Source of the DNA: Candidatus Spechtbacteria bacterium | GTDB taxonomy: Bacteria > Patescibacteriota > Minisyncoccia > Spechtbacterales > JACPHP01 | Length of the DNA: 64,000 bases | Direction of reading: 5' to 3' | Assembly: GCA_016188605.1 (NCBI GenBank) | Contig: JACPHP010000001.1 | Location: forward strand, 1,327-65,326 | Part shown: piece by piece, positions 2,098 to 42,455 of the stretch | How positions within the stretch are numbered: position 1 is the stretch's first letter | Layout: every line of letters begins with the position of its first letter | Position numbers and translations under genes: made by a program | Notes under the pieces: generated by a model | Seen by the model: only the letters and a program-made list of their open reading frames with translations | Database searches by the model: none | What the model was told of the DNA's origin: nothing

Positions 2098-2177
2098 ATC
2101 AACGAATAACGAATCTGTTACGAATAAACGAATTGACCAGCATTCGTAATTTAGCGCGGGATTCGCTATTCGTTGAT
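2098..2177. mobile_element. MITE family A copy 1 (TIR ATCAACGAATAACGAAT ... ATTCGCTATTCGTTGAT)
   Basis: 17-bp terminal inverted repeats seen directly, with internal cgaata 7-mer sub-repeats. Fills the prfA-rpmE spacer. Confidence 0.75.
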
Positions 2178-2191
2178 GATGCCATTGAAAA

Positions 2192-2410
2192 TTATTTCGT
2201 CTTCAGATCCTCATGTTTCTCCGCTCGTTTACGGAAACGTTCTACGCGGCTGCCTCGTAACGCGCTCTGCGCGCCGGTGTAGAAAGGATGGCAGGCGCTG
2301 CAGGTTTCTATCTCAATAGATTCTTTGGTCGCGCCAATAGTAAAAGTAACGCCGCAGGCGCAGGTTACTTTGGCATTAGGGAAATATTTAGGATGAATAT
2401 CTTTTTTCAT
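2192..2410 (-). CDS. rpmE: 50S ribosomal protein L31
   Basis: 72 aa. MKKDIHPKY N-terminus and a C-x-C...C-x-x-H zinc pattern typical of L31. Confidence 0.85.
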   Translation of the reverse strand: MKKDIHPKYFPNAKVTCACGVTFTIGATKESIEIETCSACHPFYTGAQSALRGSRVERFRKRAEKHEDLKTK

Positions 2411-2562
2411 AGGATTGAATGAATTTAGTAAGTGTTCCGATTTCTTTTATATAATAGGCGAAAACCGGTATTTTGTAAATCTGGCAGGAAAAAATAGGCA
2501 AGGCGGGAGGCTAACAAGCCCCCGCCTCGTAGGATAAGCAGCAGTCCACCTTGGGGTTATTG

Positions 2563-3087
2563 TTAACTGGCAGAGTTTTTTTGGGGAAGCGACGCGGAGA
2601 TCGTTGAAATAGCGCTGCGAAGCAATGAAATAATGTCACTGCGAAACCGCACCATCTCGTTGCCAACAAAAAACACACTAACACTCAACAGTGGATGTGG
2701 CCACACCTCATCTAGCACCTTACTTTGACCAATATGGAAAGAGGAAAATGTTAGGAGTGCTAGGAACAAGCTCCACCATGCCACAAAGAATACTTCCCCT
2801 GGCTTGCGCTTGAGGGCTCCATTGCACTTTGCCTTATAAACTTCCTTTGTGCCGAGGTATACTCCCAAGAGTATAAGGTATATCTCGTTTAGCATTGTCG
2901 GCGCTTGGGCAAACCACTGGAAGCCCGCAAAACGCAGAAGGATAATGACAAGATACAGTACAGTAATTCCCGCGCTGAAGCAGAAAAGAAAGTTTTTTAT
3001 ATTTTCCGCAATGACAACGGCATCCACCGTCGCATTGCTATTACCGTTACCATTAAGCAGCGTGTCCGGCTGGGTAGTCATAGCCAT
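2563..3087 (-). CDS. hypothetical polytopic membrane protein
   Basis: 174 aa ORF with several hydrophobic helices and an Asn/Gly-rich N-terminus. No recognisable family. Confidence 0.45.
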   Translation of the reverse strand: MAMTTQPDTLLNGNGNSNATVDAVVIAENIKNFLFCFSAGITVLYLVIILLRFAGFQWFAQAPTMLNEIYLILLGVYLGTKEVYKAKCNGALKRKPGEVFFVAWWSLFLALLTFSSFHIGQSKVLDEVWPHPLLSVSVFFVGNEMVRFRSDIISLLRSAISTISASLPQKNSAS

Positions 3088-3220
3088 CCTCCCTCACTGG
3101 TTTTGTTGAAATGTGCTGTATATGGCTTATATCACGATTATCTGCTAAACACAAGCCCCTGCAGAGGAACTGCTCACACCTCTTAAAGATGACGTTACGT
3201 TGAGATTAAACCTCGCCAGA

Positions 3221-3332
3221 TTCCATTGTTTCATTGCTCTATCGTTACATTGTTACATTGTTTCATTGTTGCATGGTTTCATGGTTACATAAACAATGAA
3301 ACAATGGAGCAATGAAGGGTCAATGGGAGCGG
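3221..3332. repeat. palindromic heptamer array (cattgtt / aacaatg arms)
   Basis: ccattgtttcattgctc...cattgttacattgtttcattgttgc ... acaatgaaacaatggagcaatgaag. Inverted arms seen directly. Confidence 0.65.
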
Positions 3333-3444
3333 TCGGTAATAACTGCTCATGCGTCTTCAAAAATGGTTTATGTAAGCCAAATCATTATTTAGGGGTGTGA
3401 GAGGGGTTCCCTCCGCAGAGATGGGGCGCGCGCGTAAGTAAGTA

Positions 3445-4413: not shown

Positions 4414-4440
4414 ATCATTTGAAGAAAATAGGTAGGCGCG

Positions 4441-4498
4441 AATAGTGAAGACAGAATCATGAATCATGAATACTGCACCTCACTATTCATAATTCATC
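4441..4498. repeat. interleaved inverted repeats (aatagtga/tcactatt and gaatcatgaatcatgaata/tattcataattcat) in the rpsB-tsf spacer
   Basis: Seen directly. Heptamer gaatcat units. Confidence 0.65.
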
Positions 4499-4505
4499 TT
4501 TTTTT

Positions 4506-5093
4506 ATGTCTATTTCTGCCCAACAAGTTCAGGAACTACGCCAAGCATCGGGCGCGGGTGTTATGGATGTGAAGCAAGCTCTTGAGGAAGCTGGTGGTGA
4601 TATACAAATTGCGCGTGATATTTTGCGTAAGAAGGGAATGATTAAGGCGGCTAAAAAAATGGAACGTGAAACACACGAAGGCCGCGTTGAAGCATATATT
4701 CATGCAAATAATAAAGTCGGAGTATTGTTGAAGCTTTATTGCGAAACAGATTTTGTCGCGCAAAACGAACAGTTTGCTCAGCTTGCGCACGATCTTGTGT
4801 TGCACATCGCGGCATCAAATCCTCAATATGTTTCTCCAGCCGACGTTCCCGCGCAAATTTTGGACAACGAACGCCGTATTTATACAGAGCAATTGCAGGG
4901 ATTGCAAAAGCCGACCGATGTTTTAGCGCAAATTATTGAAGGAAAGATAGAGAAGTTTATGCAAGAAGTCGCGCTCACCAAACAGCCATTCGTTAAAGAT
5001 CTGGATAAAACCGTGGAAGATGTTATTAACGAGGCAATTGCAAAAATAGGGGAGAATATTCAGATTGGGGGATTTGTGCGTTATGAGCTCTAA
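4506..5093 (+). CDS. tsf: elongation factor Ts
   Basis: 195 aa. N-terminal UBA-like region (LRQASGAGVMDVKQALEEAGGDIQIARDILRKKG) and EF-Ts core. Confidence 0.9.
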   Translation: MSISAQQVQELRQASGAGVMDVKQALEEAGGDIQIARDILRKKGMIKAAKKMERETHEGRVEAYIHANNKVGVLLKLYCETDFVAQNEQFAQLAHDLVLHIAASNPQYVSPADVPAQILDNERRIYTEQLQGLQKPTDVLAQIIEGKIEKFMQEVALTKQPFVKDLDKTVEDVINEAIAKIGENIQIGGFVRYEL

Positions 5094-5098
5094 ATCTA

Positions 5099-5195
5099 GA
5101 ATAGTGAATCACGAATCATGAATTATGAATTATGAATCACGTCAGTTAGCATTTATGATTCACAATTCATGATCCCATATTCATTTTTTATTCAT
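5099..5195. repeat. palindromic heptamer array (gaatcat/gaattat units) related to 4441..4498
   Basis: aatagtgaatcacgaatcatgaattatgaattatgaatcac ... atttatgattcacaattcatgatcccatattcat. Confidence 0.65.
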
Positions 5196-6009: not shown

Positions 6010-6048
6010 GGGCTAGTATTTAAGATTTCTTGGTTTATATTCAATTTA

Positions 6049-6121
6049 GCCAGCGTAGCTCAGTTGGTAGAGCAACACTTTTGTAAAGTGAAGGTCGTCG
6101 GTTCGAATCCGACCGCTGGCT
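6049..6121 (+). tRNA. tRNA-Thr (anticodon UGU); CCA not encoded
   Basis: Manual fold: acceptor GCCAGCG/CGCTGGC, D-arm GCTC-AGTTGGTA-GAGC, anticodon stem ACACT/AGTGA with loop TTTGTAA (U33, anticodon TGT, A37), T-arm GTCGG-TTCGAATC-CGACC, discriminator T. Confidence 0.85.
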
Positions 6122-6180
6122 CATTGGCATCTTTAATGTGGGTTGGGCGGAAGAAGTAAAATAAGTGCGGTAGAAATAGC

Positions 6181-6211
6181 AATGCCCTCAACAACAGTCG
6201 AGGGCATTTCG
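6181..6211. terminator. 9-bp stem hairpin (aatgccctc ... gagggcatt) 3' of the GC-rich minus-strand gene
   Basis: Seen directly. Lies immediately downstream of the 6213 stop on the minus strand. Confidence 0.5.
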
Positions 6212-6212
6212 T

Positions 6213-6887: not shown

Positions 6888-6908
6888 CTGTCCTTCCTCC
6901 TTCTGGAC

Positions 6909-6928: not shown

Positions 6929-6938
6929 TGTCTCTGGC

Positions 6939-9906: not shown

Positions 9907-9979
9907 GCACCCATAGCTCAGCTGGTAGAGCAGCTCCCTTTTAAGGAGATGGTCGCAGGTCCGAATCCTGCTGGGTGCA
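9907..9979 (+). tRNA. tRNA-Lys (anticodon UUU); CCA not encoded
   Basis: Acceptor GCACCCA/TGGGTGC, D-arm GCTC-AGCTGGTA-GAGC, anticodon stem GCTCC/GGAGA with loop CTTTTAA (anticodon TTT), T-arm GCAGG-TCCGAAT-CCTGC, discriminator A. Confidence 0.85.
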
Positions 9980-15630: not shown

Positions 15631-15795
15631 AAAATTTTGAATTTTTAATTTCGAATTTTGAATAAATTTTGAATGACTGAAATTAGAAGAATTATCATCT
15701 TTATCATCAAAAAGTTATATATTAGCGCTAGATAGCACGTGTTTCAAAATTAAATAATTCTAATTTTATTCAAAATTCAAAATTCTAAATTAAAT
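15631..15795. repeat. palindromic heptamer array (ttttgaa / ttcaaaa arms)
   Basis: aaaattttgaatttttaatttcgaattttgaataaattttgaat ... attcaaaattcaaaattctaaatt. Confidence 0.65.
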
Positions 15796-17749: not shown

Positions 17750-17767
17750 GGTATAATGAATATAATG

Positions 17768-17890
17768 ACAAATTTCAAATACTAAATATCAAATCAATGT
17801 CAAAAACTTAATGCCAAAAACTATATTGTAGTTTTAAGTTTTTGTCCTTCGGCATTCATTTAACATTTGAAATTTGGATTTTGAAATTTA
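17768..17890. repeat. palindromic heptamer array (caaat / atttg units)
   Basis: aaatttcaaatactaaatatcaaatcaatgtcaaaaac ... catttaacatttgaaatttggattttgaaattt. Confidence 0.6.
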
Positions 17891-17895
17891 TTTTT

Positions 17896-18606
17896 ATGTC
17901 TAGCAAAGCAGTCAATATTTTAGGCGTGCGCGTAGACAATCTCTCCCTTAGCGAGGCTCTCTTACGCGCTGAGGATTTGCTTGAAAGTGGTGGCGCTCAT
18001 TACATTGTAACACCCAACCCGGAAATTGTTCTGCGGGCTTATCGCGACTCTAGACTACGCGAAATTCTCAACAATGCTTCAATGTCGCTGTGCGATGGAA
18101 TGGGTGTTTTTCTTGCGGGAATGTTAAATGGCAAAAGATTTACGCAGCGTATTACGGGAGTGGATTTTATGGACGCGCTTTGCCACAGGGCGGCGGAAAA
18201 AAAGTGGCGAGTTGCATTTGTCGGCGCTTCTAGCGATGTGAGAGAAAACCTTTGCGCGCATTATCAACAAATGCACCCCGCTAGTTTTTTTCAATCACTC
18301 GCAGATGAGATGATGAACAAACCAGTTGATGCCGATATCATATTTGTAGCGCTTGGCGCGCCGAAACAAGAAGAATGGATGGTGGTCAGACAGAAATCTT
18401 TTGATGCGCGTGGAGTAATGGTAGGTGTCGGCGGCGCATTTGATATATTAGCAGGTTCACTGCCAAGAGCGCCACAGAGCATGCGTTCGCTCGGACTCGA
18501 ATGGTTGTGGCGGATTTTCCTTCAGCCTTGGCGCATTAAGCGCGTAGTAAATGCGGTTATTGTTTTTCCGATTGTGTACAGTATAAATATTTTGAAAAAT
18601 CTGTGA
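17896..18606 (+). CDS. WecB/TagA/CpsF-family glycosyltransferase
   Basis: Family-typical NILGVRVD...YIVTPNPE...DGMGV N-terminus. Start taken at ATG 17896 (MSSKAVNILGV). Confidence 0.8.
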   Translation: MSSKAVNILGVRVDNLSLSEALLRAEDLLESGGAHYIVTPNPEIVLRAYRDSRLREILNNASMSLCDGMGVFLAGMLNGKRFTQRITGVDFMDALCHRAAEKKWRVAFVGASSDVRENLCAHYQQMHPASFFQSLADEMMNKPVDADIIFVALGAPKQEEWMVVRQKSFDARGVMVGVGGAFDILAGSLPRAPQSMRSLGLEWLWRIFLQPWRIKRVVNAVIVFPIVYSINILKNL

Positions 18607-21253: not shown

Positions 21254-21279
21254 AAAGTCTATTCATAAACTATAAGCAA

Positions 21280-21458
21280 AATTTCAAAATCCAAATGTCA
21301 AATTACAAATCAATTTCAAATACTAAATGTCAAATGCTAAAATTTTAGGTTTTGAATATTTGAGACTTTTCCGCCTGAGGCGCCTGTCCGCCTCTGGCGG
21401 GGATCAGCCTATGGCCGAGACATTGATTTGACATTTGTAATTTGGACTTTGTAATTTA
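21280..21458. repeat. palindromic heptamer array (caaatgt/acatttg units) enclosing a long-variant REP-like element
   Basis: aaatgtcaaattacaaatcaatttcaaatactaaatgtcaaatg ... cattgatttgacatttgtaatttggactttgtaattt. Confidence 0.65.
21367..21418 (-). mobile_element. REP-like element, long variant (R6) with two CCGCC hairpins plus CAGCC/GGCC hairpin
   Basis: ttttccgcctgaggcgcctgtccgcctctggcggggatcagcctatggccgaga. Its reverse complement matches the 45196..45246 copy. Confidence 0.65.
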
Positions 21459-23027: not shown

Positions 23028-23130
23028 CCAATGACCAATCAAATCCCAATGCCTAAAATCCCAAGACCTAACTTTAATCATTTGGATTTGGGGCTTGATT
23101 GGTCATTTGGATTTGGTCATTGGGATTTTT
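23009..23130. repeat. palindromic heptamer array (aatccca/tgggatt arms)
   Basis: aaaatcccaaaccccaatgaccaatgaccaatcaaatcccaatgcctaaaatcccaag ... tggatttggggcttgattggtcatttggatttggtcattgggatttt. Confidence 0.7.
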
Positions 23131-24177: not shown

Positions 24178-24250
24178 ATCAACGAATAACGTACGAATAT
24201 ATGAATCGGCCGTAGTGGAGTATTCGTATATTCGTACGTTATTCGTTGAT
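24178..24250. mobile_element. MITE family A copy 2
   Basis: atcaacgaataacg ... cgttattcgttgat. Fills the spacer between the GT2 stop (24165) and the LCP start (24259). Confidence 0.75.
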
Positions 24251-27459: not shown

Positions 27460-29193
27460 ATGCCTCGTTTCATATTCGTAGTTGGAGGAGTAATGTCAGG
27501 GGTTGGTAAGGGCGTCGCGACTTCGTCAATTGGAACAATCCTGCAGGCGCGGGGTTTTCGCGTTACTGCGGTAAAAATTGATCCCTACTTAAACGTAGAT
27601 GCCGGCACCATGAACCCGGTTGAGCATGGCGAGGTTTTTGTGACCAGTGACGGCATGGAATGCGACCAGGATATTGGCAACTACGAGCGATTTTTAAATA
27701 AAGATATTCCCGCCATTAATTATATGACTAGCGGAAGTGTTTATTACACGGTAATTCAGCGTGAGAGAAACTTGGGTTACGGAGGACGTTGCGTTGAAGT
27801 GGTGCCAGATATCCCGGAGGAAGTAATTGGCCGTTTGCAGCGTGTTGCCAAAGTCTCAAAGGCAGATTTTGTGTTGGTAGAAATAGGTGGCACTGTGGGC
27901 GAATATCAGAATCTTCTTTTTTTGGAAGCGGCGCGTATGATGCGTTTGCGCACTCCAAAGCAAGTAATTTTTGCTTTGGTTAGCTATTTGCCAGTACCTA
28001 AAATGGTTGGCGAGATGAAAACTAAGCCAACGCAGTATGCCGTGCGATCTCTAAACTCTGCCGGCATTCAGCCGGATCTTATCATTGCGCGTTCAGAATG
28101 CCCTATAGATGAACCGCGCAAAAAAAAGCTTTCCGTGTTTTGCAATGTCGGACCGGAAGATATTATCTCTGCGCCAGATATTCAGTCAAGCATTTACGAG
28201 ATACCTGTTAATTTTGAAAATGATGGTCTTGGCAAGCGTATAGTGGTAAAGTTTGGCATGCGTGACAAAGCCGTGGAATTAAAGCAATGGAAGAGCGTTG
28301 TTTCCAAGATTCAGGCGCAAAATCCGGAGGTAAAAATCGGAGTCGTGGGAAAATACTTCGAATCAGGGAACTTTGTATTATCTGACTCTTATCTTTCGGT
28401 GCTAGAGGCAGTAAAGCATGCCGCGTGGTACCAGAATCGTATTCCTATCATCCAATGGCTTAATGCTGGCGACTACGATCCTTCGGCGAATTCGACCCTT
28501 TCGACAAGCTCAGGGCAAGGAATAAAAAAGCAATTGGCGCAACTTAGAGAATTTGATGGCATTATTGTACCCGGAGGATTTGGCAGCAGGGGGGTGGAGG
28601 GTAAGATTAATGTTATCCGTTATTGCCGCGAAAATAATATTCCATATTTTGGACTGTGCTATGGCATGCAGCTTGCAACAATTGAATTTGCGCGAAACGT
28701 TTGCGGCATGGAAGGTGCCAATACCACTGAGATTGATGGCAAGACACCTTACCCGGTGATAGATATAATGACCGAACAAAAAGCTAAGCTAGCAAAAGGG
28801 GACTACGGCGCTTCCATGCGACTTGGTGCATACGGATGCGCCCTGAAAGAAGGAACTTATGCGTATCAAGCATATGCACAGGAGGGTCGTACCCTTCGCG
28901 GAGGGTCCGACCCTCCTATCTTGTCGATGGGTAAAAAAAATGGCGAACTGCTTATTTCAGAACGCCATCGCCATAGATATGAATTAAATAATGCTTACCG
29001 AGAACAGTTTACCGCAAACGGCTTGGTTTTTTCTGGTGTGAACCCAGAGCGCGATCTTGTAGAGATTATTGAGTTGCCAAAACACAAATTTTTCATGGGT
29101 ACGCAATTTCATCCAGAGCTTCAATCGCGCCCCTTGAGGCCACATCCATTGTTTGTTGCGTTCATTGGGGCGGCAGTGAATATCAACGAATAA
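27460..29193 (+). CDS. pyrG: CTP synthase
   Basis: N-terminal synthetase domain (GGVMSGVGKG) and C-terminal GATase (GLCYGMQ). The last four codons and TAA (...N-I-N-E-stop) are supplied by the left TIR of MITE-A copy 3. Confidence 0.9.
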   Translation: MPRFIFVVGGVMSGVGKGVATSSIGTILQARGFRVTAVKIDPYLNVDAGTMNPVEHGEVFVTSDGMECDQDIGNYERFLNKDIPAINYMTSGSVYYTVIQRERNLGYGGRCVEVVPDIPEEVIGRLQRVAKVSKADFVLVEIGGTVGEYQNLLFLEAARMMRLRTPKQVIFALVSYLPVPKMVGEMKTKPTQYAVRSLNSAGIQPDLIIARSECPIDEPRKKKLSVFCNVGPEDIISAPDIQSSIYEIPVNFENDGLGKRIVVKFGMRDKAVELKQWKSVVSKIQAQNPEVKIGVVGKYFESGNFVLSDSYLSVLEAVKHAAWYQNRIPIIQWLNAGDYDPSANSTLSTSSGQGIKKQLAQLREFDGIIVPGGFGSRGVEGKINVIRYCRENNIPYFGLCYGMQLATIEFARNVCGMEGANTTEIDGKTPYPVIDIMTEQKAKLAKGDYGASMRLGAYGCALKEGTYAYQAYAQEGRTLRGGSDPPILSMGKKNGELLISERHRHRYELNNAYREQFTANGLVFSGVNPERDLVEIIELPKHKFFMGTQFHPELQSRPLRPHPLFVAFIGAAVNINE

Positions 29194-29272
29194 CGAATCC
29201 ATTACGAATTTACGAATATCCTACTATCTATAGCTGATTCGTTTATTCGGATAGGATTCGTTATTCGTTGAT
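29182..29272. mobile_element. MITE family A copy 3
   Basis: atcaacgaataacgaat...attcgttattcgttgat. Overlaps the pyrG stop and abuts the rpmA stop. Confidence 0.8.
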
Positions 29273-29624: not shown

Positions 29625-29740
29625 TCTCAAAACGCAAATGTCAAAACTCAAATCTACATCGCAAATCTTAAATCTCCAGCAGTAGTTTCTTAGATTTGAT
29701 TTTCAGTTTTGCGATTTGAGCTTTAAGATTTGAGATGAAT
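29625..29740. repeat. palindromic heptamer array (caaatct / agatttg arms), same family as 796..950
   Basis: aaaacgcaaatgtcaaaactcaaatctacatcgcaaatcttaaatc ... gatttgattttcagttttgcgatttgagctttaagatttgagat. Confidence 0.7.
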
Positions 29741-30816: not shown

Positions 30817-30848
30817 TTACTAACTTTCGTGTTATGGTATAAAAGAAA

Positions 30849-30970
30849 AACACAAAACACAAATTACAAAAGCCAAACAAATTTCAATTTACAAAGTACA
30901 AACTACTGCGAATTTGGAATTTGTATCCTGTGTTTTGTTTGGACTTTGTGCTTTGAGTTTTGTGTTTTTC
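30849..30970. repeat. palindromic heptamer array (acaaa / tttgt units)
   Basis: cacaaaacacaaattacaaaagccaaacaaatttcaatttacaaagtacaaac ... tttgtatcctgtgttttgtttggactttgtgctttgagttttgtgtttt. Confidence 0.6.
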
Positions 30971-30976
30971 TAAACC

Positions 30977-32821
30977 ATGAAGCCACTTACAAAACAAACA
31001 TATCTTCTATACTGGCAGCACGCTCGAAAGTATTCTTTCTGGCTTTTTGTGACTGTCGCGGGGGTTGTGATCGCAAGTGTTTTGGAAGTTATTATACCTC
31101 TTTACTTCAAAGAGTTCTTCGAAGCGCTCGTACGAGGCGCGCAAGGCCGCGACTTGTATGCCAACGTGCTTCTGCAAATTCTATTTATAATAATTGCTTT
31201 GCGCGTTATTTCGTGGGCTTTTTGGCGCGTTTCTACTTTTGTTATAGCGCATTTACAAAGCAGGGTGATGTCCGATCTTCTCAACACTGCTTTTGAGAAC
31301 CTACAAAATCATTCATATTATTTCTTTGCTAACCGTTTCGTAGGTACGCTAGTGCGGCGCGCTGGCCGTCTTTCTGATTCTTTTGAAGGGATTGCGGATC
31401 GCGTATATTATGATTTCCTGCCGCTTATTGTAAAGATAATCGCTATTGTTTTTGTTTTATTCTTAAGTAGCAAGTTAGTTGCCTTTATCACGATAGCGTG
31501 GACTATTATGTATTTGGCTATAAATTATTTTTTTATAATTTATAGCATTAAATACGACGAAAAAAGCTCGGCAATGGATTCAATTGTATCTGGGCAGCTT
31601 GCTGATACGCTTACTAACAATACTAACGTTAAGCTTTTTACTGGCATTAAGTACGAAATAAGCCAATTTGTAAAACTTACAGAAGAGCAGTTCCGTTTGA
31701 GGCGTTTTGCTTGGTGGCTGGCGGAATCTTCCGAGGCGGTTCGCGCGGGCCTCATGGTCATTTTGGAGTTCGTTATATTCTATTTTGCTATTTCTTTGTG
31801 GCAATCCGGCCAGATTGGGGTAGGGGACTTCGTGCTCATTCAATCTTATTTAATAGATCTATTCGGCCGATTGTGGGGCTTTGCTCGCGCAATGCGCAAT
31901 ATGTTCCGTTATCTCGCCAATGCCGAGGAAATGGTGGAGATTATCAATACACCGCACGGAATTATTGATAAGTCTCGCGCAAAGAAATTAAAAGTTACCA
32001 ACGGCGAGGTTGAGTTTCGCGACGTGACATTCGCGTACAATCAGACTAGAGATGTAATAAATCATCTAAATCTTAAGATTAAGCCGGGCGAAAAAGTCGG
32101 TGTTGTAGGGTTATCCGGTTCAGGTAAGACAACCATCGCTTCGTTAATTTTACGCCTGTTTGATATTCAAGATGGCGCGATTCTTATTGATGGTCAAAAT
32201 ATTGCAGATGTTACGCAGGATTCACTCCATTCAAGCATAAGTTTTGTGCCACAAGACCCAATTCTTTTTCATCGTACTCTTTGGGAGAATATTCGCTACG
32301 GGAAAAGGGACGCAAAAGATAAGGAAGTTATACAAGCGGCGCGCGACGCGTATTGCGATGAGTTTGTAGAAACTTTGCCGGAGAAATATCAAACGTATGT
32401 AGGGGAGAGAGGCATCAAGCTTTCAGGCGGACAGCGCCAGCGTATAGCCATAGCGCGCGCATTTTTAAAGAACGCCTCTGTTTTGATTTTGGATGAGGCA
32501 ACCAGCAGCCTAGACTCTCATTCTGAGCAAATCATTCAGCAAGCGCTCGAACGGCTTATGCAAGGCCAGCCTTCGCAAAATGCTTCCGCCGGCACTAAAG
32601 TTCTGGCGGACGAGACGGCGGGGCAAGGCCGTACAACAATAGTGATAGCACACCGTTTATCAACGATAAGTAAAATGGATCGCATAGTTGTTCTTGATAA
32701 CGGAAAAGTAGTTGAGCAGGGGACGCATGCAGAACTTATAGCTAACCCCGACAGTATTTATACTAAACTATGGAATTTACAGGTCGGTGGATTTATTTCG
32801 GCCGGAGAAACGGAAGAATAA
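30977..32821 (+). CDS. ABC transporter permease/ATP-binding protein (MsbA-like exporter) with a 21-aa insertion between D-loop and H-loop
   Basis: Six TM helices. Walker A GLSGSGKTT, signature LSGGQRQRIAIARAF, Walker B ILDEATSSLD. The insert is QPSQNASAGTKVLADETAGQG, before RTTIVIAHRLSTI. Confidence 0.85.
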   Translation: MKPLTKQTYLLYWQHARKYSFWLFVTVAGVVIASVLEVIIPLYFKEFFEALVRGAQGRDLYANVLLQILFIIIALRVISWAFWRVSTFVIAHLQSRVMSDLLNTAFENLQNHSYYFFANRFVGTLVRRAGRLSDSFEGIADRVYYDFLPLIVKIIAIVFVLFLSSKLVAFITIAWTIMYLAINYFFIIYSIKYDEKSSAMDSIVSGQLADTLTNNTNVKLFTGIKYEISQFVKLTEEQFRLRRFAWWLAESSEAVRAGLMVILEFVIFYFAISLWQSGQIGVGDFVLIQSYLIDLFGRLWGFARAMRNMFRYLANAEEMVEIINTPHGIIDKSRAKKLKVTNGEVEFRDVTFAYNQTRDVINHLNLKIKPGEKVGVVGLSGSGKTTIASLILRLFDIQDGAILIDGQNIADVTQDSLHSSISFVPQDPILFHRTLWENIRYGKRDAKDKEVIQAARDAYCDEFVETLPEKYQTYVGERGIKLSGGQRQRIAIARAFLKNASVLILDEATSSLDSHSEQIIQQALERLMQGQPSQNASAGTKVLADETAGQGRTTIVIAHRLSTISKMDRIVVLDNGKVVEQGTHAELIANPDSIYTKLWNLQVGGFISAGETEE

Positions 32822-32849
32822 AAAAAGGGCCTCCGGGAGGCCCTTTTTC
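32821..32849 (+). terminator. intrinsic terminator (gggcctc-cgg-gaggccc + ttttt)
   Basis: aaaaaagggcctccgggaggccctttttca. Confidence 0.7.
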
Positions 32850-32945
32850 ATCGGCGATATAGAATAGAGGGGAGTATAAGAAGAAGCTTCTTTGGCCGTT
32901 ATTTATATAGTCGTATAATGTACCTTATGCGACATACAATATAAA

Positions 32946-33018
32946 ATCAACGAATAACGAATCCCTACGAATAAACGAATTAAAAATAAGAAGTAGATAG
33001 TATTCGTTATTCGTTGAT
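32946..33018. mobile_element. MITE family A copy 4
   Basis: atcaacgaataacgaat...attcgttattcgttgat. Confidence 0.75.
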
Positions 33019-33022
33019 ACAT

Positions 33023-33337
33023 CTATCGCGACGGTGTTGGTATCACCCTATCAACACCTTTATCAATTTGTTGGCTAACCCGTTGCTTGAGATTGTCTTT
33101 TAAATAGTTTTTGACATCATTAACGGCCTCAACAGCGCTTATTTTAGATTGTTGAAAAAGTTGTTTTATAAAATCTTCGTCCTTAATGCTATCAATCAAT
33201 CCCTTTGTCTTATTAACAATACTTACAACAAAATTTTTTATGTCTGATCCGTAAGGAATTTTTTGCACTAGATTATCGGGCACCACATATGCAAATATTA
33301 GCAATAAAATTATTGTAAATATAAGGAATTTCGCCAT
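33023..33337 (-). CDS. small hypothetical protein with N-terminal TM helix
   Basis: 104 aa ORF. Confidence 0.45.
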   Translation of the reverse strand: MAKFLIFTIILLLIFAYVVPDNLVQKIPYGSDIKNFVVSIVNKTKGLIDSIKDEDFIKQLFQQSKISAVEAVNDVKNYLKDNLKQRVSQQIDKGVDRVIPTPSR

Positions 33338-33369
33338 ATGTCGTATAATAATTATTAGTGTAAAATAGA

Positions 33370-34629
33370 TTATTTCGGCAAATAATCCATTGGATTCAAT
33401 GACGCGCCGATTGGCAATGTGCCAGCCAGTTTGCTGGCTTTAGTGGTGTATGTATTGGGCGCATACACCGTAAAATGCACATGGGAGCCCGTAGAATAGC
33501 CCGTAGACCCCATATATCCTATTATATCCCCTCTTTTTACGGTTTGGCCAACTTTTGCGGTCTGCACAGACATATGTCCATAAAGGGTTACGAGACCATT
33601 GTCGTGCTCTATAGTTATCCATTTTCCATATGCGTAAGGCGCGCTAGCCACTCCTATTACAACACCTTCGCGCGCAGCGCGAAGTGGCGTGCCTATAGGC
33701 CCCGCGATATCAATGCCATTATGAAAGCACGTGGGATATGCTTTGGACTTTTTAGCAAATGCCGTGCATCCGTATCCTTGTGAAAGCCTACCGCTAGCCG
33801 GCCATTCAAGAACGCCATGACCAGTAGTTGGTATAATGCTGGGATCGAGTGTTTCCCGTAATCGATCTTCTAATTCAAAAATTTGGCGCTGAACTTCATC
33901 TTGTTTACTTGTGACATCTTTGAGCAGATTCTGATATTGCGCTTCTTGATTGCGAGTCTGCTTTAGAACATCCTGCTGGTCGGCCCTTTGCGATTCAACA
34001 ATTGCCTGTTGAGCAGTAAGGTCGTCCTTTGCGTTGTTAAGATCGTCTTGCCGCTGGTTAAGTTCCAATTTCGCATTTTCAAGCCCGGCTTTTTCAGATT
34101 TTAAATTTTTTAGATTTTCATAAAGATTACTATTTAAGCTATCCTGATTCTGAACCTGATCGTAGAAATTGGATAAATTTTCATATTTTAGCACAAGTTC
34201 GAGGATTGACTCGCTATCACTCGCGTATATTTCGCGCACCAAAGCGGCAGTCTGCTCTTTATTTCTTTCAATAGATCGTTCAAGAGCGTGAATCTGCAAT
34301 TCGGTTTGCGTTATCTTATCAGACAACAATGTTATTGCCTGCCGATCTTTGTTTATTTGTTTTTCAAGCGATTGAATTGACCTGTTATAGTTAGCAATTA
34401 GATTTTTTAAAGTATTGGCCTGCTGTTGCGTTGTATCAATATTTTCTTTATAAGATTGCGCTTGTTCTTGCAATTCTCTTATTTGCTGTTGTTTTTCGTC
34501 AAGCTGTTTTTGAATATCGTCTGCTGTTGTGGCAGAGGCGTAGTTGGCAAAACCTGACAATACTAAAAGTAACTGCAATAATAGGCAGATTGATCGCAAA
34601 AAGTATTTTGATACATGAAACATTGGCAT
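33370..34629 (-). CDS. M23 family peptidase with long N-terminal coiled coil (EnvC-like murein hydrolase/activator)
   Basis: Coiled-coil Q/E/L-rich 250 aa, then the LytM domain (GIDIAGPIGTPLRAAREGVV ... GSTGYSTGSHVHFTVY). Confidence 0.8.
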   Translation of the reverse strand: MPMFHVSKYFLRSICLLLQLLLVLSGFANYASATTADDIQKQLDEKQQQIRELQEQAQSYKENIDTTQQQANTLKNLIANYNRSIQSLEKQINKDRQAITLLSDKITQTELQIHALERSIERNKEQTAALVREIYASDSESILELVLKYENLSNFYDQVQNQDSLNSNLYENLKNLKSEKAGLENAKLELNQRQDDLNNAKDDLTAQQAIVESQRADQQDVLKQTRNQEAQYQNLLKDVTSKQDEVQRQIFELEDRLRETLDPSIIPTTGHGVLEWPASGRLSQGYGCTAFAKKSKAYPTCFHNGIDIAGPIGTPLRAAREGVVIGVASAPYAYGKWITIEHDNGLVTLYGHMSVQTAKVGQTVKRGDIIGYMGSTGYSTGSHVHFTVYAPNTYTTKASKLAGTLPIGASLNPMDYLPK

Positions 34630-34667
34630 GAAAGGAGCTCACTATGAAACTTTTATACTTACCGATT

Positions 34668-36245
34668 TCAGAGGAGGCTTTTTGCATACGCTAATCGAGC
34701 AAGCGTTTTTTCTTTACCCAGAATACTAGCTACTTCAAACGGGCCAGGTGATGCTTTTTGACCAGTTAAGGCAACGCGCAAAGGCCATAATATAGTGCCT
34801 TTATCCCCCTTTGCCGAAGCATAAGGCATTAAAACGTCTTCCAGAGATTTTGCGGTCTGAAATATTTTATTATCTAACGACATGATAAAGTTTTCTAATT
34901 CAGACAGCGTTTTGGTAATAGTTATTTTGTCGGTATTTTTCCAAACAAGCAGGGATTCATCGTAAGAGGGACTATCTGTAAAGAAAAATCCTGCTCTCTC
35001 CCCTATTTCCGCGAGGCGCTTTAACCGTTCTTGCTCCAGAGCAATAATTTTTTTTAGCCATTCAAAATTAACTATCTCGCCGGTTTTAATAATTTTGAAT
35101 TTCAAACCGTCATTTTGCTTGTCTCGCGAAGCATAGGCGGAGTGAGGAGATTTGCGATTTGCGATTTGCGATTCCTCGATGTATCCCGCATAAACCAAAA
35201 ATGGTACACAACGCTGGGTTAATTCGCCTATCTCCATGTTACGTATGTACATGCCATTCATCCAATCCAATTTTTCGAGATTAAAAATAGCTCCGCTCTG
35301 CTGAATATTGTCGCCGTCAAATCGTTCGATAAGCTCCTTCATTGTCATTATTTCTTTATCATCATTGGCGTTCCAGCCAAGGATAGCAAGAAAGTTTATA
35401 AATGCTTCGGGCAGATATCCCATTTTTTCATATTCAAGAACAGAAACCGCGCCGTGGCGCTTGCTAAGCTTTGATCGATCTGTACCGAGTAGCAACGGCA
35501 AGTGAGCGTACTTAGGCGATTGCAATTTAAGCGCGCGTTGGATCAGAATTTGTTTCGGGGTATTTGAGATATGATCTTCGCCGCGAATAACATGCGTAAT
35601 TTCCATGTCGCTGTCGTCAATTACAGCCGCAAAATTATATAACGGCAAATCAAGCGACTTTGCGAGTGAAAAATCTCCCAGCAAATCAGCATTAAATTCT
35701 ATCTCTCCTCGTACATGATCATAAAATTTTACGCTGCCTCCAGGATTCTGAAAACGTATGATAGATTTTTCTTTATTAGTATCAGTAACATCGATTGCAG
35801 CAAATTTGCGATAATCACATATATGCATTGGCGGTTGCTTTTGCGCCTCTTGTTGCGCGCGTTCTTTTTCAAGCTCTGCTTGTGTATGCCAGCAATAAAA
35901 AGCATCGCCTTGTTCTAATAATTGATTTAAATACTGTTTATGAATTTTTAGGCGTTCGCTTTGACGATATGGGCCATGGAGGCCGCCAACATCGGGCCCT
36001 TCGTCCCAATCCATGCCTAGCAATTTAAGCCCCTTGAGGATATTTTCTTCATATTCTTTTTTGGAACGTTCGGTATCAGTATCCTCAATGCGTACTATAA
36101 ATACTCCCCCATGGTGACGAGCAAAAAGGTAGTTAAATAATGCGGTGCGAGCCGTGCCGACGTGCAGCATTCCCGTTGGGCTTGGAGCTATGCGGACGCG
36201 AACGGTTTGGTCAGGGGTTACGAATTGTTCTTTAGTGGTATTCAT
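34668..36245 (-). CDS. gltX: glutamyl-tRNA synthetase
   Basis: HIGH-type motif SPTGMLHVGTAR and KMSKS-type KLSKRHG. Confidence 0.85.
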   Translation of the reverse strand: MNTTKEQFVTPDQTVRVRIAPSPTGMLHVGTARTALFNYLFARHHGGVFIVRIEDTDTERSKKEYEENILKGLKLLGMDWDEGPDVGGLHGPYRQSERLKIHKQYLNQLLEQGDAFYCWHTQAELEKERAQQEAQKQPPMHICDYRKFAAIDVTDTNKEKSIIRFQNPGGSVKFYDHVRGEIEFNADLLGDFSLAKSLDLPLYNFAAVIDDSDMEITHVIRGEDHISNTPKQILIQRALKLQSPKYAHLPLLLGTDRSKLSKRHGAVSVLEYEKMGYLPEAFINFLAILGWNANDDKEIMTMKELIERFDGDNIQQSGAIFNLEKLDWMNGMYIRNMEIGELTQRCVPFLVYAGYIEESQIANRKSPHSAYASRDKQNDGLKFKIIKTGEIVNFEWLKKIIALEQERLKRLAEIGERAGFFFTDSPSYDESLLVWKNTDKITITKTLSELENFIMSLDNKIFQTAKSLEDVLMPYASAKGDKGTILWPLRVALTGQKASPGPFEVASILGKEKTLARLAYAKSLL

Positions 36246-36252
36246 AAAATAT

Positions 36253-36339
36253 ATTAGCGAATAACGAATGGCATAAGAATATACGAATACTCCACTACAG
36301 CCAATTCGTTTATTCGTAAAAAATTCGTTATTCGTTGAT
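36253..36339. mobile_element. MITE family A copy 5
   Basis: attagcgaataacgaat ... attcgttattcgttgat. The right TIR supplies the last codons of murG (...L-I-N-E-stop). Confidence 0.8.
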
Positions 36340-37491
36340 TAAGTCCAATATCATTCCTGCAATCTCATCCGCAGCCCTTGGCCGTGCAAACTCCGCGGCG
36401 CGTTGTGACATAAATCGCCGTTTTTGTTCATCATTAATAACAAAATTAATTGTTTCAAAAAATAAATTGGGTGTAAGGTTTTGCTCCTCAAGCACCGTAC
36501 TGGCGCCAAAATCAGCATAAAGATAAGCATTTTTTTTCTGGTGATCATCCGCCGCGCTTGGCAGTGGAATAAGGATACTTGGTTTTTGTATAGCGGCAAT
36601 TTCAAAAATACTTCCCGACCCCGCCCTGCTTACCACAAGCGAGCATAAAGCGTAGGCGTGCGCGAGGCCTGCTTCATCCATAAATGCATGCGGGTGGTAA
36701 GATGAGTACAATTCTAGCGGAGTCCTTGCAAGCGCAATTTCTTTCACGGCAACAAAATGCTTTTCTCCGATTTGATGTATCACTTCAAAGTTAGCAAGAA
36801 GTTTTGGCAATGATTCCAAAACAAGTTCGTTAATTTTTTGCGCGCCCTGGCTTCCTCCCTGTATTAAAATAATCGGCTTCTGCGAATCTATTTGAAAAAT
36901 TTTCCTCCCCTCATCAGTAGAACCGTTCATAAGATTAGGGCGAATCGGGTTTCCTAGAACCGTGTACAACTCTGGTAGGTGCTCGCGTTTAGCCCCTCGA
37001 ACAAACTCGGGGTAAACAACCGGAAATGAAAGTATAACTTTGTCAGCAAATCGTGCCAGTAAGCGATTTGCGAGCCCCATAACGCTATCTGACTCATGAA
37101 TTACTATCGGTATGCGATAAAGCCAACCAACTAAGACAGGGAAAGCGCTGCCGTAACCTCCTTTTGCGAATATCACATCAGGCATGAGCCAGTATAAATA
37201 CGCGAGAGATTGTATAAGAGTTATGGGCGGCTTTAATATATCTAAAATAGTTGTGAGCGAAAAATATCTGCGCAATTTGCCGGCAACAAGATTCCATACA
37301 GTAATGCCTTCTTGCGCGAATATTTCTTGTGCCATTTTTCCAGGTCCAAGGAATATAACTTCTGGCTCTGCGAATCCCTCTTCTTGCGTGCGAAAAACAA
37401 AACTGCGCGCAACAGCAATAAGCGGAAATAAGTGTCCGCCAGTGCCACCGCCGGTAAGCAGGATATGTAATTTTTCTTTTTCGTTTGACAT
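36328..37491 (-). CDS. murG: undecaprenyldiphospho-muramoylpentapeptide beta-N-acetylglucosaminyltransferase
   Basis: G-loop LLTGGGTGGHLFP and GT28 core. Confidence 0.85.
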   Translation of the reverse strand: MSNEKEKLHILLTGGGTGGHLFPLIAVARSFVFRTQEEGFAEPEVIFLGPGKMAQEIFAQEGITVWNLVAGKLRRYFSLTTILDILKPPITLIQSLAYLYWLMPDVIFAKGGYGSAFPVLVGWLYRIPIVIHESDSVMGLANRLLARFADKVILSFPVVYPEFVRGAKREHLPELYTVLGNPIRPNLMNGSTDEGRKIFQIDSQKPIILIQGGSQGAQKINELVLESLPKLLANFEVIHQIGEKHFVAVKEIALARTPLELYSSYHPHAFMDEAGLAHAYALCSLVVSRAGSGSIFEIAAIQKPSILIPLPSAADDHQKKNAYLYADFGASTVLEEQNLTPNLFFETINFVINDEQKRRFMSQRAAEFARPRAADEIAGMILDLINE

Positions 37492-37497
37492 TGCAGT

Positions 37498-37584
37498 AAT
37501 CAGCGAATAACGAATAGTGTACGAATATACGAATACTCTACCAAATCGATTCGTTTATTCGTGTTGGATTCGTTATTCGTTGAT
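37498..37584. mobile_element. MITE family A copy 6
   Basis: aatcagcgaataacgaat ... attcgttattcgttgat. Confidence 0.75.
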
Positions 37585-37588
37585 TATA

Positions 37589-38701
37589 TCAGTTATGCCG
37601 AGAAATCTGAAGTAGTAATCCGGAAGCCGCCAGTGTTGACACCATAGCCGAACCGCCATAACTAATAAATGGCAAAGGTATTCCCATCAAGGGCAAAACG
37701 CCTGTTATAGATCCGATGTTGATAAATGCCTGGATGCCAATCCAGGAAGTGATGCCGAGCGCTAACATGGAAGAAAATCTATCATTTGAGTCTCGCGCGA
37801 TTTTTAGTCCCCGCCAAATAAAAATTAAAAAAAGTAGTATGAGTGAAATAGCGCCAACAAATCCCGTCTCTTCGCTCCACACCGCAAAGATAGAGTCTCC
37901 CATTGGTTCTGGAAGAAAATTATGAGATTGCTGGCCTTGGGCTATTCCAACCCCCCAAAGTCCTCCCGAACCTTCCGCGAGCAACGCTTGATTAAGATGA
38001 TAGCTAATACCCATAGGATCGGTTTGAGGGTTAAGAAACGTAGATATTCTTTCTAGTCTGTACGGCGCAATTTGAATAAGAATAAATAATCCTATAACGC
38101 CCAGGACGCCCAGAAAAGCAAAATGCTGTATTTTTCCCCCAGCTACAATATACATAAATCCCGCGGTAAGACCAATTAAAATTAAAGTGCTAATATCGGG
38201 TTGAAGAAAGAGGAAAAAAGCCAACATGCCAACCAGGATCGTAAAGGGTACTAAACCAGTTCCAATATTTTGCACTTCATTTTTTTTTGATGCAAACCAT
38301 GCGGCAAGATATATTACAAATGTAAGTTTGGTAATTTCCGAGGGTTGCATTAGAAAAGACCCAATATGAATCCATCGCTGCGCGCCACCGGCTGCGTATG
38401 CAAACCCCGGAACAAAAATAAGTATAAGCAGAAATAGCGAGGTTAGATAGAATGGAAGCGCTAAACTATGCAATATTTTGTACGGTAAAAAATAAAATAT
38501 AAACCCGCCAATCAGTCCCAACCCCACTCCGTAAATCAATTGATGTTGCAAATATCCATATATGTTGCCAAAAACATACTGACTTTCGCCTCCTGACGCG
38601 GATGATAAAATAACAAGCCCGACACTAAACAGGGCTGCTATGGACATAAGCAAAATGAAATCTGGTTTTTTGAGCAGCAAATGTTTGTTCATGTGGAACA
38701 A
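37589..38701 (-). CDS. ftsW: SEDS family protein FtsW/RodA (TTG start)
   Basis: 10 TM. Conserved SEDS periplasmic loop (QRWIHIGSFLMQPSEITKL). Confidence 0.8.
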   Translation of the reverse strand: MFHMNKHLLLKKPDFILLMSIAALFSVGLVILSSASGGESQYVFGNIYGYLQHQLIYGVGLGLIGGFIFYFLPYKILHSLALPFYLTSLFLLILIFVPGFAYAAGGAQRWIHIGSFLMQPSEITKLTFVIYLAAWFASKKNEVQNIGTGLVPFTILVGMLAFFLFLQPDISTLILIGLTAGFMYIVAGGKIQHFAFLGVLGVIGLFILIQIAPYRLERISTFLNPQTDPMGISYHLNQALLAEGSGGLWGVGIAQGQQSHNFLPEPMGDSIFAVWSEETGFVGAISLILLFLIFIWRGLKIARDSNDRFSSMLALGITSWIGIQAFINIGSITGVLPLMGIPLPFISYGGSAMVSTLAASGLLLQISRHN

Positions 38702-38780
38702 TCAGCGAATAACGAATGGCGTACGAATATACGAATACTCCACTACCGCTAATTCGTTTATTCGTAAAAAATTCGTTGAT
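38700..38780. mobile_element. MITE family A copy 7 (right TIR shortened)
   Basis: aatcagcgaataacgaat ... aattcgttgat. Confidence 0.7.
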
Positions 38781-38781
38781 G

Positions 38782-40347: not shown

Positions 40348-40354
40348 AAATTTA

Positions 40355-40468
40355 ATCTAAAATCTCAAATGGCAAATCTTAAATCTACATCGCAAATCTT
40401 AAAGCTTCAGTCGTAATTTTTAGATTTAAGTTTTAGTTTTGCGATTTGCGATTGGAGTTTTGACATTT
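40355..40468. repeat. palindromic heptamer array (caaatct / agatttg arms)
   Basis: aaaatctcaaatggcaaatcttaaatctacatcgcaaatcttaaag ... tagatttaagttttagttttgcgatttgcgattggagttttgacattt. Confidence 0.7.
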
Positions 40469-40470
40469 AT

Positions 40471-41619
40471 TTAATGGAAGCTAAGCCAAATTGCTGTCAT
40501 TGAAAAAAGCGAAGCTACAGCCCATGCGTACATCACTATAGTCGCCTCGCTCCAACCTGTAATTTCAAGGTGATGATGTAACGGGGCCATTGCAAGCAAT
40601 CTATGTCCGAATAATACACGCCACGCGACTTGAATGAGAACTGATACGATTTCAATAACGAATATTCCTCCTATGATTGGCAAAAGCACTACCCTGTCTA
40701 ACGCAAACGCAATCGCGGTAAGCATTACCCCCATTCCAAGCGATGCCACGTCTCCCATTTGATATCGTGCGGGTTTGATATTAAATAGTAAATAGCCAAG
40801 CAGTGCGCCTATCGTTACCGCAATCAGGAAAATGAAATCTGTGTTTCTATGTTGGAGCGCTACGATAAAAAACGCGCTGTAGGATAGCAGTAATGTCCCA
40901 GCAGATAGCCCGTCAATGCCGTCGGTAATGTTTACAGCATTAGACATAAACATAACCAGGAAAATAATTAAAGGAACAATCATCCAGCCCAGATCATATG
41001 AACCATGCCATGGAATCCAGATTGACGTCCAGCTAAGCTTAAATGAAAGCCACCAGGCAATAATGCATCCTATAATGAATTGTACCAAAATTTTCTCATG
41101 AGCCTGAATGCCACTGCCGGGATGCGATCCCAGAAGATAGAAAAATCTTTTATACGCGTACCACGGCAATAACAGTACATACCATACGCGAGCTAAAATA
41201 TTTTTGTGGACGCGTATAAGCGTCCAAACTTTTCCAAGCGTACGCACGGGGCGGGTTTTTGTATAAAAGATATTCAGCAGGTCGTCCAAACCACCCAAAG
41301 CAGCTGACAACAGTAGCACTCCTATTGGTACATATGTCGTCTCACGATGCCAATTAAACATCGTTGTGAGCACCGCGATAACGCTAACAATTATAATGCC
41401 TCCCATGATTGGTGTACCTATTTTTGCCTCGCGCCCGGCAATTAACGATGAAAAATCGTGTTCATCTCGTCGAGTTATGTGTAATTTTTTAAGAAGCGCG
41501 ATAAGCGGAATTGAGCCTATGACGGTTAAAGCGAATGCCGTGAAAAAAAATGCAAAAATAGAATCCGGAAATGAAGTAAAAATCATACTTACAAGTACAG
41601 CGGACGATATAGACCACAT
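40471..41619 (-). CDS. mraY: phospho-N-acetylmuramoyl-pentapeptide transferase
   Basis: Motifs GTPIMGG and NAVNITDGIDGLSAG. Confidence 0.85.
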   Translation of the reverse strand: MWSISSAVLVSMIFTSFPDSIFAFFFTAFALTVIGSIPLIALLKKLHITRRDEHDFSSLIAGREAKIGTPIMGGIIIVSVIAVLTTMFNWHRETTYVPIGVLLLSAALGGLDDLLNIFYTKTRPVRTLGKVWTLIRVHKNILARVWYVLLLPWYAYKRFFYLLGSHPGSGIQAHEKILVQFIIGCIIAWWLSFKLSWTSIWIPWHGSYDLGWMIVPLIIFLVMFMSNAVNITDGIDGLSAGTLLLSYSAFFIVALQHRNTDFIFLIAVTIGALLGYLLFNIKPARYQMGDVASLGMGVMLTAIAFALDRVVLLPIIGGIFVIEIVSVLIQVAWRVLFGHRLLAMAPLHHHLEITGWSEATIVMYAWAVASLFSMTAIWLSFH

Positions 41620-42359
41620 GCTACCTCCTGGCCCGATATAAACCCGCGTTGCTGGTTAATTGTGCGTGATGTGTTGGGCCACTCTTCCCAATGCTGTTCA
41701 ACCAAAGGCAACGATTCATTCGTGATAGTTATTTTTCCTTCTTTTATTCCCTCGCCAGTTTCTTCACGTACCGATTGAGCGTATTCCACGGAAATCAACT
41801 TATCGTTATTATCTCGTTCAGTTTTTATAACAAGTATGGCATGGTCAACTTCAGCGACAAATCTAATCAAGTCGCCGGGCTGCAATTCTTGCCAATTCTT
41901 TAATTCCCTAGCATTTTGTAGATCGGTAAGCGTTGCAACACCGATGTGCGTGAATGGGCGTAAATAAATTGCGATTTTTGCAAATAAGCCAGACTGCGGG
42001 AATTGCAAAACTTCATATACGCGCTTGCTCTTACTTTGACGCGTCCAAGCATCAAATATATGGGCGATAAAACCGGAGCATTCCACGCCGAGCCGCCTCT
42101 TTCTCATTATATCACGAACTTCATCTTCTTCCATTGAGGAAAAGTTTTTATGCTCAAGGCGCTCAATTATTTTGAGTTCGTCTTCAATCTCTTGAGGAGA
42201 CCCTTTGCCGGAAAAAGCGTTCAAGCCCCAGCGCTCCTTACCACTGCGAGGATTGCGATAATAAGGGCAACGGACTGCCCTGTTGTCACCTATGTTGAGA
42301 TGTTTATAGCGCTCTATAACGTCTAGAGCTGGTTGAGGGATACTTACAATTGTATTCAT
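41589..42359 (-). CDS. hypothetical protein, possible Cys/His hydrolase (ECSGFIAHIF ... EVDHAILV)
   Basis: 256 aa. Candidate catalytic Cys and His in a papain-like spacing. Family not confidently assigned. Confidence 0.45.
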   Translation of the reverse strand: MNTIVSIPQPALDVIERYKHLNIGDNRAVRCPYYRNPRSGKERWGLNAFSGKGSPQEIEDELKIIERLEHKNFSSMEEDEVRDIMRKRRLGVECSGFIAHIFDAWTRQSKSKRVYEVLQFPQSGLFAKIAIYLRPFTHIGVATLTDLQNARELKNWQELQPGDLIRFVAEVDHAILVIKTERDNNDKLISVEYAQSVREETGEGIKEGKITITNESLPLVEQHWEEWPNTSRTINQQRGFISGQEVACGLYRPLYL

Positions 42360-42368
42360 ATGTTTACT

Positions 42369-42455
42369 ATCAACGAATAACGAATCCTTTACGAATAAAC
42401 GAATTGGCTGTAGCGGAGTATTCGTATATTCGTACGCTATTCGTTATTCGTTGAT
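42369..42455. mobile_element. MITE family A copy 8
   Basis: atcaacgaataacgaat ... attcgttattcgttgat. The right TIR supplies ...I-I-N-E-stop of the ATP-grasp gene. Confidence 0.8.

Follow-up and report, generated by a model that had tools for sequence, protein, structure and literature searches.

Short palindromic repeats in gene junctions of a Spechtbacteria genome, probable derivatives of a hairpin-bounded element with a GxxExxY nuclease gene

We analyzed 64,000 nucleotides (nt) from a “Candidatus Spechtbacteria” genome (Patescibacteria, candidate phyla radiation; GenBank assembly GCA_016188605.1, contig JACPHP010000001.1, positions 1,327 to 65,326; this whole stretch is hereafter the window), in which eight copies of a palindromic repeat built from ACGAAT modules lie between genes. 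We conclude, with a probability of roughly 0.6, that these ACGAAT elements are derivatives that lack an open reading frame (ORF) and resemble miniature inverted-repeat transposable elements (MITEs), and that they descend from a small palindromic selfish element similar to the intervening sequences (IVSs) of rRNA, the long form of which carries a gene for a GxxExxY nuclease. The copies inserted into housekeeping operons, at junctions that are very short, and the short form, not the long form alone, was copied to new sites in the source genome.

Eight ACGAAT elements in gene junctions

The first-pass annotation of the window had reported eight copies of one repeat, at positions that proved correct to within one base. 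All 15 matches to ATCAACGAATAACGAAT with two or fewer mismatches in the window fall at these eight sites, compared with 0.05 matches expected in shuffled sequence, in which 15 was never reached; the pattern places the starts of copies 6 and 7 at 37499 and 38701. Every copy is a palindrome of 73 to 91 bp. The inverted ends, initially described as 17-bp terminal inverted repeats, are real, but the complementarity is longer, with arms of 29 to 38 nt that are 78 to 97% complementary. Each arm follows the formula ATCA-[A/G]CGAAT-A-[A/G]CGAAT, then a free spacer of 4 to 5 nt, then (T)ACGAAT-WW-ACGAAT, which amounts to four CGAAT modules at fixed spacing, and a variable loop of 8 to 25 nt leads to the second arm in mirror image. 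The 15-nt loop ACTCCACTACAGCCA or its complement is common to copies 2, 5, 7, and 8, in both orientations, and copies 3 and 4 share a second loop motif. This sharing of loops shows that whole short units were copied and did not arise by convergence, and it upholds the description of the repeats as dispersed copies of a single element. As RNA, the elements are predicted to form an outer helix of 17 bp that is joined through a symmetric internal loop to an inner helix of ∼14 bp, with hairpin energies of −21 to −42 kcal/mol and z-scores of −2.6 to −10.7.

All eight copies (8/8) occupy the spacer between two genes, as had been claimed, and in five cases the downstream start codon is 6 to 9 nt from the element end. 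Copy 1 (2098..2177, 80 bp) separates rpmE (2192-2410, minus strand) from prfA (1010-2062, minus strand); TAG replaces TAA in one of its arms, and its predicted RNA fold has an energy of −26.6 kcal/mol (z, −4.4). On one side of copy 2 (24178..24250, 73 bp), whose arms are 97% complementary, a GT2 glycosyltransferase gene has its stop at 24165, and on the other side a LytR_cpsA_psr gene begins 8 nt away, with its ATG at 24259; this copy is predicted to fold at −42.4 kcal/mol (z, −10.7). Copy 3 (29182..29272, 91 bp; −40.9 kcal/mol) stands between pyrG and its downstream region, and pyrG takes its final three codons and stop from the first 12 bases of the element (atc aac gaa taa). The inner module pair is absent from one arm of copy 4 (32946..33018, 73 bp), which is located between a convergent pair, an ABC transporter gene and a 104-amino-acid (aa) ORF (33023-33337, minus strand) with its stop 4 nt away; this copy is ∼100 nt past a canonical terminator at 32821-32849. 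Copy 8 (42369..42455, 87 bp) gives I-N-E and a stop from its right end to the gene for a 437-aa protein and has the ATG of a 256-aa ORF (41589-42359) 9 nt from its left end.

The remaining three copies occupy successive junctions of one operon. Copy 5 (36253..36339, 87 bp) lies between murG, to which its right end gives (I-N-)E and the stop, and gltX, whose ATG is 7 nt from its left end. Copy 6 (37498..37584, 87 bp) lies between ftsW (stop 4 nt away) and murG (ATG 6 to 7 nt away), and copy 7 (38700..38780, 81 bp), with one outer module absent from one arm, lies between an amidohydrolase gene (stop 1 nt away) and ftsW (ATG 8 nt away). Two related loci (L203 and L204) have the same gene order, amidohydrolase-ftsW-murG-gltX, and MurG proteins 55 to 57% identical to that of the window. 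Their junctions overlap or span 4 to 6 nt and contain no element, whereas the window has one in each of the three. These element-free syntenic junctions show gain of the elements within the operon and agree with the claim that insertion occurred at gene junctions.

Among 62 elements, the ends facing the 3′ end of a gene are mostly 0 to 9 nt from the stop codon, with nine using the TAA in the arm, and the ends facing the 5′ end of a gene are mostly 4 to 12 nt from the start codon. The proposed preference for stop-proximal targets is not supported: start codons are abutted as tightly as stops, and such a preference would be indistinguishable from the effect of purifying selection in a compact genome. 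Target-site duplications were not detected above chance among 60 elements, the flanking direct repeats being mostly 0 to 1 nt. We also observed that, immediately outside an ACGAAT element, C was never found to follow ...TGAT, nor G to precede ATCA... (0 of ∼120 ends in the window and loci L002 to L120), though TGATC makes up ∼13% of TGATN in the same loci. In four genomes, GAGCGAAGCGA or its complement abuts an element end (L002, 6115-6126; L007, 1376-1387; L102, 3324-3335; L031, 1140-1151); this sequence could represent either an additional outer module or a favored neighbor.

Translation bore out the observation that three unrelated proteins stop on the TAA within ATCAACGAATAA (atc aac gaa taa). 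The CTP synthase gene pyrG (27460..29193, plus strand; Pfam CTP_synth_N and GATase), the product of which ends ...AAVNINE, enters its element from the left end. The minus-strand genes murG (36328..37491; Pfam Glyco_transf_28; ending ...LDLINE inside copy 5) and that for the conserved 437-aa protein (42444..43757; ending ...EYIINE inside copy 8) enter from the right end. The 437-aa protein has no Pfam domain, and its earlier “ATP-grasp” label was not confirmed; its database copy begins at residue 29. The element does provide the stop codon, with the INE ending found in 0/119 other PyrG and 0/119 other MurG sequences. The first-pass annotation further proposed that C termini had been remodeled. 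A tail of 1 to 3 residues (I-N-E) was indeed gained, but the native C termini were kept, not replaced. PyrG orthologues end ...KAAIS or similar, and the window counterpart reads ...GAAVN followed by INE (the nearest named relatives, at 67% identity, are “Candidatus Spechtbacteria”). Homologues of the 437-aa protein stop 2 to 4 residues past a conserved RxQ, and the window protein reads RVQEYI, then INE. The closest MurG relatives, which have no element, end ...LIN and ...VINV, so the I-N of the window protein may be native and the E the sole addition.

Judged from these comparisons, the remodeling is trivial in size. The outermost module carries an in-frame TAA, such that insertion at or just before a stop codon costs only a tail of 1 to 3 residues. 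In other genomes, the same TAA ends six additional proteins (two GroES proteins, L15, ValRS, a P-type ATPase, and a membrane protease), with INE, ISE, or IIE as the final residues; the stop-supplying effect is a property of the whole family. For annotation, this means that recurrent ...INE, ...ISE, and ...IIE endings derive from the element and are not native.

The long form and the spread of the family

At three loci (L035, L046, and L114), elements of ∼457 bp were found in which a gene for a ∼130-aa protein, frameshifted in L114, lies between the same arms. The protein matches TIGR04256 “GxxExxY protein” (NCBIfam; E = 1.4e-32) and PF13366 PDDEXK_3 (Pfam; E = 5e-31) and has a PD-(D/E)XK nuclease fold with an intact D...E-x-K motif, and D74, E84, and K86 are invariant in an alignment of 22 homologues. 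In all three loci the ATG start shares bases with the innermost module of one arm (CGAATG), and the stop codon, TAA, falls within the inner modules of the opposite arm (ATTCGTAA). The protein has no sequence match to solved structures and belongs to no PHROG or PADLOC family. Decay of the gene is seen not only in L114 but also in L057, which has a premature stop, and long and short forms occur together in the same metagenome-assembled genomes (MAGs; JBBUGM01, VMFT01, and CAZYEL01). The IS200/IS605, RAYT, or TnpB partner envisaged at the outset was not found: longer units with the same ends encode the GxxExxY protein, which is not a known transposase, and none of them is within the window.

A metagenome scan with the GxxExxY protein returned 555 relatives, from which 80 loci were kept and 75 independent genes tested. 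Around GxxExxY genes, CGAAT occurs on average 1.4 times upstream and ATTCG 1.7 times downstream, compared with 0.14 and 0.18 for the opposite orientation. We then applied a module-agnostic test, which asks for a 5-mer repeated at least twice upstream and its reverse complement repeated at least twice downstream. By this test, 55 of the 75 genes (73%) lie between inverted arrays, compared with 3% of control positions; when at least three repeats are required, the proportions are 41% and 0.1%. The modules in other lineages include ACAAAT, ACTAAT, ACGAAA, CACAGAT, CACGGAT, CGCGGA, and CTCAGAT, and they are always mirrored on both arms.

Several long elements have additional features. In three ACGAAT-armed elements, a passenger gene separates the left arm from the GxxExxY gene (L123, 1900-2890; L124, 604-1562; L130, 2512-3430). 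The passenger of L123 and L124 is a 163-aa ORF and that of L130 a different one, of 137 aa, and the right arms of L123 and L130 are nearly identical. In two genomes, full-length elements are found at the same place (L046, 7826-8000; L125, 2539-2986), 2 to 3 nt beyond the stop codon of a gene whose product, ending ...HFAR(W), we take to be ribosomal protein S7. The shared position could be an orthologous insertion or site-specific homing.

To survey the short form, we scanned one genome per species (596 Gb) with the outer 17-mer, and at least 120 stretches were returned. By our arithmetic, a collection of this size should contain ∼140 chance matches to the 17-mer alone; the raw list therefore has no meaning, and only loci with the full palindrome were counted. 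The complete four-module palindromic architecture is present at ∼50 among the 120 loci listed, which come mostly from many Patescibacteria lineages (Saccharibacteria, Parcubacteria, and Portnoy-, Sungii-, Gottesman-, Lipton-, Staskawicz-, and Nealsonbacteria), plus several MAGs labeled Bacteroidota, the label being the MAG's own. Across 100 arms, the inner modules, which were outside the search pattern, have 1.5 to 1.9 bits per position, and the spacer has 0 to 0.5 bits. Locus L040 contains three copies with loops shared among them. In the literature searched (subscription journals were outside its scope), we found no description of these repeats in Patescibacteria or of hairpin-bounded GxxExxY elements.

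The window also contains at least 10 more intergenic palindromes with the same architecture, in which arms of tandem 5- to 8-nt modules are built from different modules (CTCAAAT, ATGAAT, TTTGAAT, CCAATGA, ACAAA, GAATACA, and others). They are located at 765-947, 3224-3325, 5100-5195, 15636-15794, 17762-17897, 21279-21457, 22998-23130, 29627-29733, 30844-30971, 58908-59071, 60374-60435, and 62089-62221. Under a strict criterion, 16 module arrays were detected in the window, including 6/8 of the ACGAAT copies, versus 0 in 20 simulated windows.

Proposed mechanism and competing explanations

We propose that an ACGAAT element would be cotranscribed with its operon and fold into the 17-bp plus 14-bp hairpin. 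By analogy with 23S rRNA intervening sequences, this hairpin would probably be cut by RNase III, leaving the flanking cistrons functional. The GxxExxY nuclease of a full-length copy may recognize the CGAAT arrays at both ends and could promote copying of both long and short forms, via transposition or break-induced copying. We also put forward, tentatively and as a broader idea that is on balance doubtful, that GxxExxY proteins (TIGR04256/PF13366) are the mobility or maintenance nucleases of an unrecognized class of hairpin-bounded mini-elements, including or sister to the rRNA intervening sequences. Tandem 5- to 8-nt modules on the two arms would be what such nucleases recognize, and copies without the ORF would be spread in trans into gene junctions of candidate-phyla-radiation and Bacteroidota genomes. 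This would offer a concrete, testable role for a large family that is annotated only as “GxxExxY protein.”

Several points weigh against our explanation. By tblastn, the 64-kb window has no GxxExxY gene, and no nuclease or transposase activity is documented for any GxxExxY protein in the searched literature; one survey lists the function of PF13366 as “Unknown,” with “multiple transfers” between lineages (PMC3424549). Module type tracks protein similarity only weakly (43.2% versus 41.2% identity, with a difference at least as large in 26/1000 permutations). The element-free relatives are just 55 to 57% identical in MurG, so exact insertion points are undefined, and the missing target-site duplications carry no positive information on mechanism. 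Finally, because a 17-mer from one arm was used to find the loci, every element has at least one arm whose outer modules are conserved by construction.

An alternative is that the hairpins serve the host as RNA, either as intercistronic processing or stabilizing signals in the manner of REP and ERIC sequences or as regulators of translation coupling, with GxxExxY genes as occasional passengers. The hairpins are very stable, their modules are conserved across phyla, and in many genomes they sit exactly between cistrons, with starts 4 to 12 nt and stops 0 to 9 nt from their ends. We nevertheless consider a host function unlikely, given that relatives have this operon without any hairpin and with its genes overlapping, that elements occur in both orientations relative to transcription, and that copy 4 lies between convergent genes, past a real terminator. 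Compensatory variation between arms is also missing. Spacer complementarity is 38% within elements versus 41% between elements, fully complementary spacer pairs number 0/19, and G is never present on both arms at the A/G positions (position 5). Since variable positions do not covary, each arm looks independently held to the consensus, a pattern expected of ends recognized by a protein and not of a helix maintained through compensatory substitutions. Even so, the transcript cannot avoid forming a hairpin. Rfam provides just subthreshold, generic hairpin (miRNA-precursor) matches to the elements; only two tRNAs reach the gathering score in the window, in which Rfam finds no rRNA. No element is called by a scan for intrinsic terminators, and the stems are A+T rich and have no T runs in their downstream flanks. 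Fixed spacing and independent constraint of the CGAAT pentamers on each arm could also suit arrays of binding sites for a host nucleoid or regulatory protein, or DNA-uptake signals, neither being mobile DNA. This we regard as highly improbable: ACGAAT is not enriched outside the elements (∼14 per strand versus 18 expected), a result that likewise rejects a DNA-uptake sequence, the shared loops show whole-unit copying, the units enclose an ORF in relatives, and the window also has other module types arranged in the same architecture.

Two further explanations accept mobility and differ in how the short copies came about. With terminal inverted repeats, small size, many copies, and intergenic positions, the elements could be classical MITEs that end in ATCAACGAAT...ATTCGTTGAT and are moved by an ordinary DDE-type transposase encoded elsewhere. 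The GxxExxY gene would then be cargo, to which the elements with an extra passenger gene in L123, L124, and L130 lend some plausibility. Against this stand the lack of target-site duplications in 60 elements and of any longer element with these ends and a transposase among ∼200 loci, as well as GxxExxY starts and stops that are built into the arms in independent lineages and an association that holds for 73% of GxxExxY genes; we therefore find it quite improbable. The short copies might instead be remnants of former full-length insertions that were deleted in situ, as the decaying ORFs of L114 (frameshift) and L057 (premature stop) and the eroding ORF of the Coxiella IVS (PMC4990558) could suggest. 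However, four window copies at different loci have the identical 15-nt loop, two others share another motif, and loops are also shared by the three L040 copies. Independent deletions would not give the same end points, and we judge this origin to have a very modest chance of being correct. Descent from a selfish element whose long form encodes the GxxExxY nuclease, with copying of the short form itself, is the explanation that we favor.

Streamlined Patescibacteria genomes, which are usually thought to be repeat poor, thus harbor many small palindromic inserts within essential operons, and these inserts lengthen conserved proteins by short tails and fragment short-read assemblies. Both ends of Logan contigs L121 and L122, from the same organism with an identical murG, fall within ACGAAT elements. 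Other features of the window include a tRNA gene (9907-9979) enclosed by a perfect 23-nt inverted repeat (9891-9913/9972-9994). Cumulative GC skew peaks at ∼32000-36000, and gene orientation flips from plus to minus at ∼33 kb; this region looks like a replication terminus. The canonical terminator at 32821-32849, which is bidirectional, is within the region of the skew peak.

Comparison with known systems

Integron attC sites resemble the ACGAAT elements in being imperfect palindromes close after stop codons, with the next ORF within a few bases and ends like ...AAC/GTT.... In contrast, the elements described here have core housekeeping neighbors, occur in both orientations, and contain repeated modules. 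We rejected the attC identity, since ATCAAC and GTTGAT each fail RYYYAAC/GTTRRRY at one position, in addition to the orientations and neighbors just named.

The Correia/NEMIS, ERIC/YPAL, and Rickettsia palindromic elements are likewise small palindromic repeats that are cotranscribed with their neighbors and can add coding sequence or stops, and RNase III cuts Correia hairpins. None of them, however, is known to be linked to a nuclease ORF. Correia elements have TA duplications and no module arrays, and Rickettsia palindromic elements insert in frame inside ORFs, whereas ACGAAT elements add no more than 3 terminal residues.

The REPIN/RAYT system shares more with the ACGAAT family, as both have short, palindromic, nonautonomous intergenic units, one small gene flanked by the same repeats in inverted orientation, and no target-site duplication. 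REPs are single palindromes of 20 to 40 nt with a GTAG head, unlike the four-module arrays described here. RAYT belongs to the HUH/Y1 (IS200-like) enzymes, but the product of the gene flanked by ACGAAT arms (TIGR04256/PF13366) has a PD-(D/E)XK fold, and we rejected a REP/RAYT identity on this basis.

The closest described system is the 23S rRNA intervening sequence (Coxiella, Leptospira, and Salmonella), with its S23p (23S_rRNA_IVP) ORF. The Coxiella IVS is a 428-nt “selfish genetic element” whose termini form a 28-bp stem, in which tandem GACAGAT heptamers reach the ATG of a small, decaying S23p ORF and RNase III cuts at the first repeat (PMC4990558). In both systems, complementary termini made of tandem short repeats form a long stem up to the start codon of a small ORF, that ORF is often decaying or absent, and insertion is into highly expressed transcripts. 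They differ in that the window copies lie between protein-coding genes and not within a 23S rRNA helix, that the cargo of the ACGAAT long form is the PD-(D/E)XK GxxExxY protein and not the four-helix-bundle S23p (PF05635), and that the ACGAAT short form is present in many copies per genome. We also observed PF05635 ORFs outside rRNA genes and between inverted module arrays at two loci (L098, 4551-5178; L137, ∼4740-5160), with the modules CATCAAA and GATGTTAG. The origin and function of rRNA IVSs were called unclear in the Coxiella study (PMC4990558), and elements of the kind described here are a candidate answer to how these sequences arose and spread.

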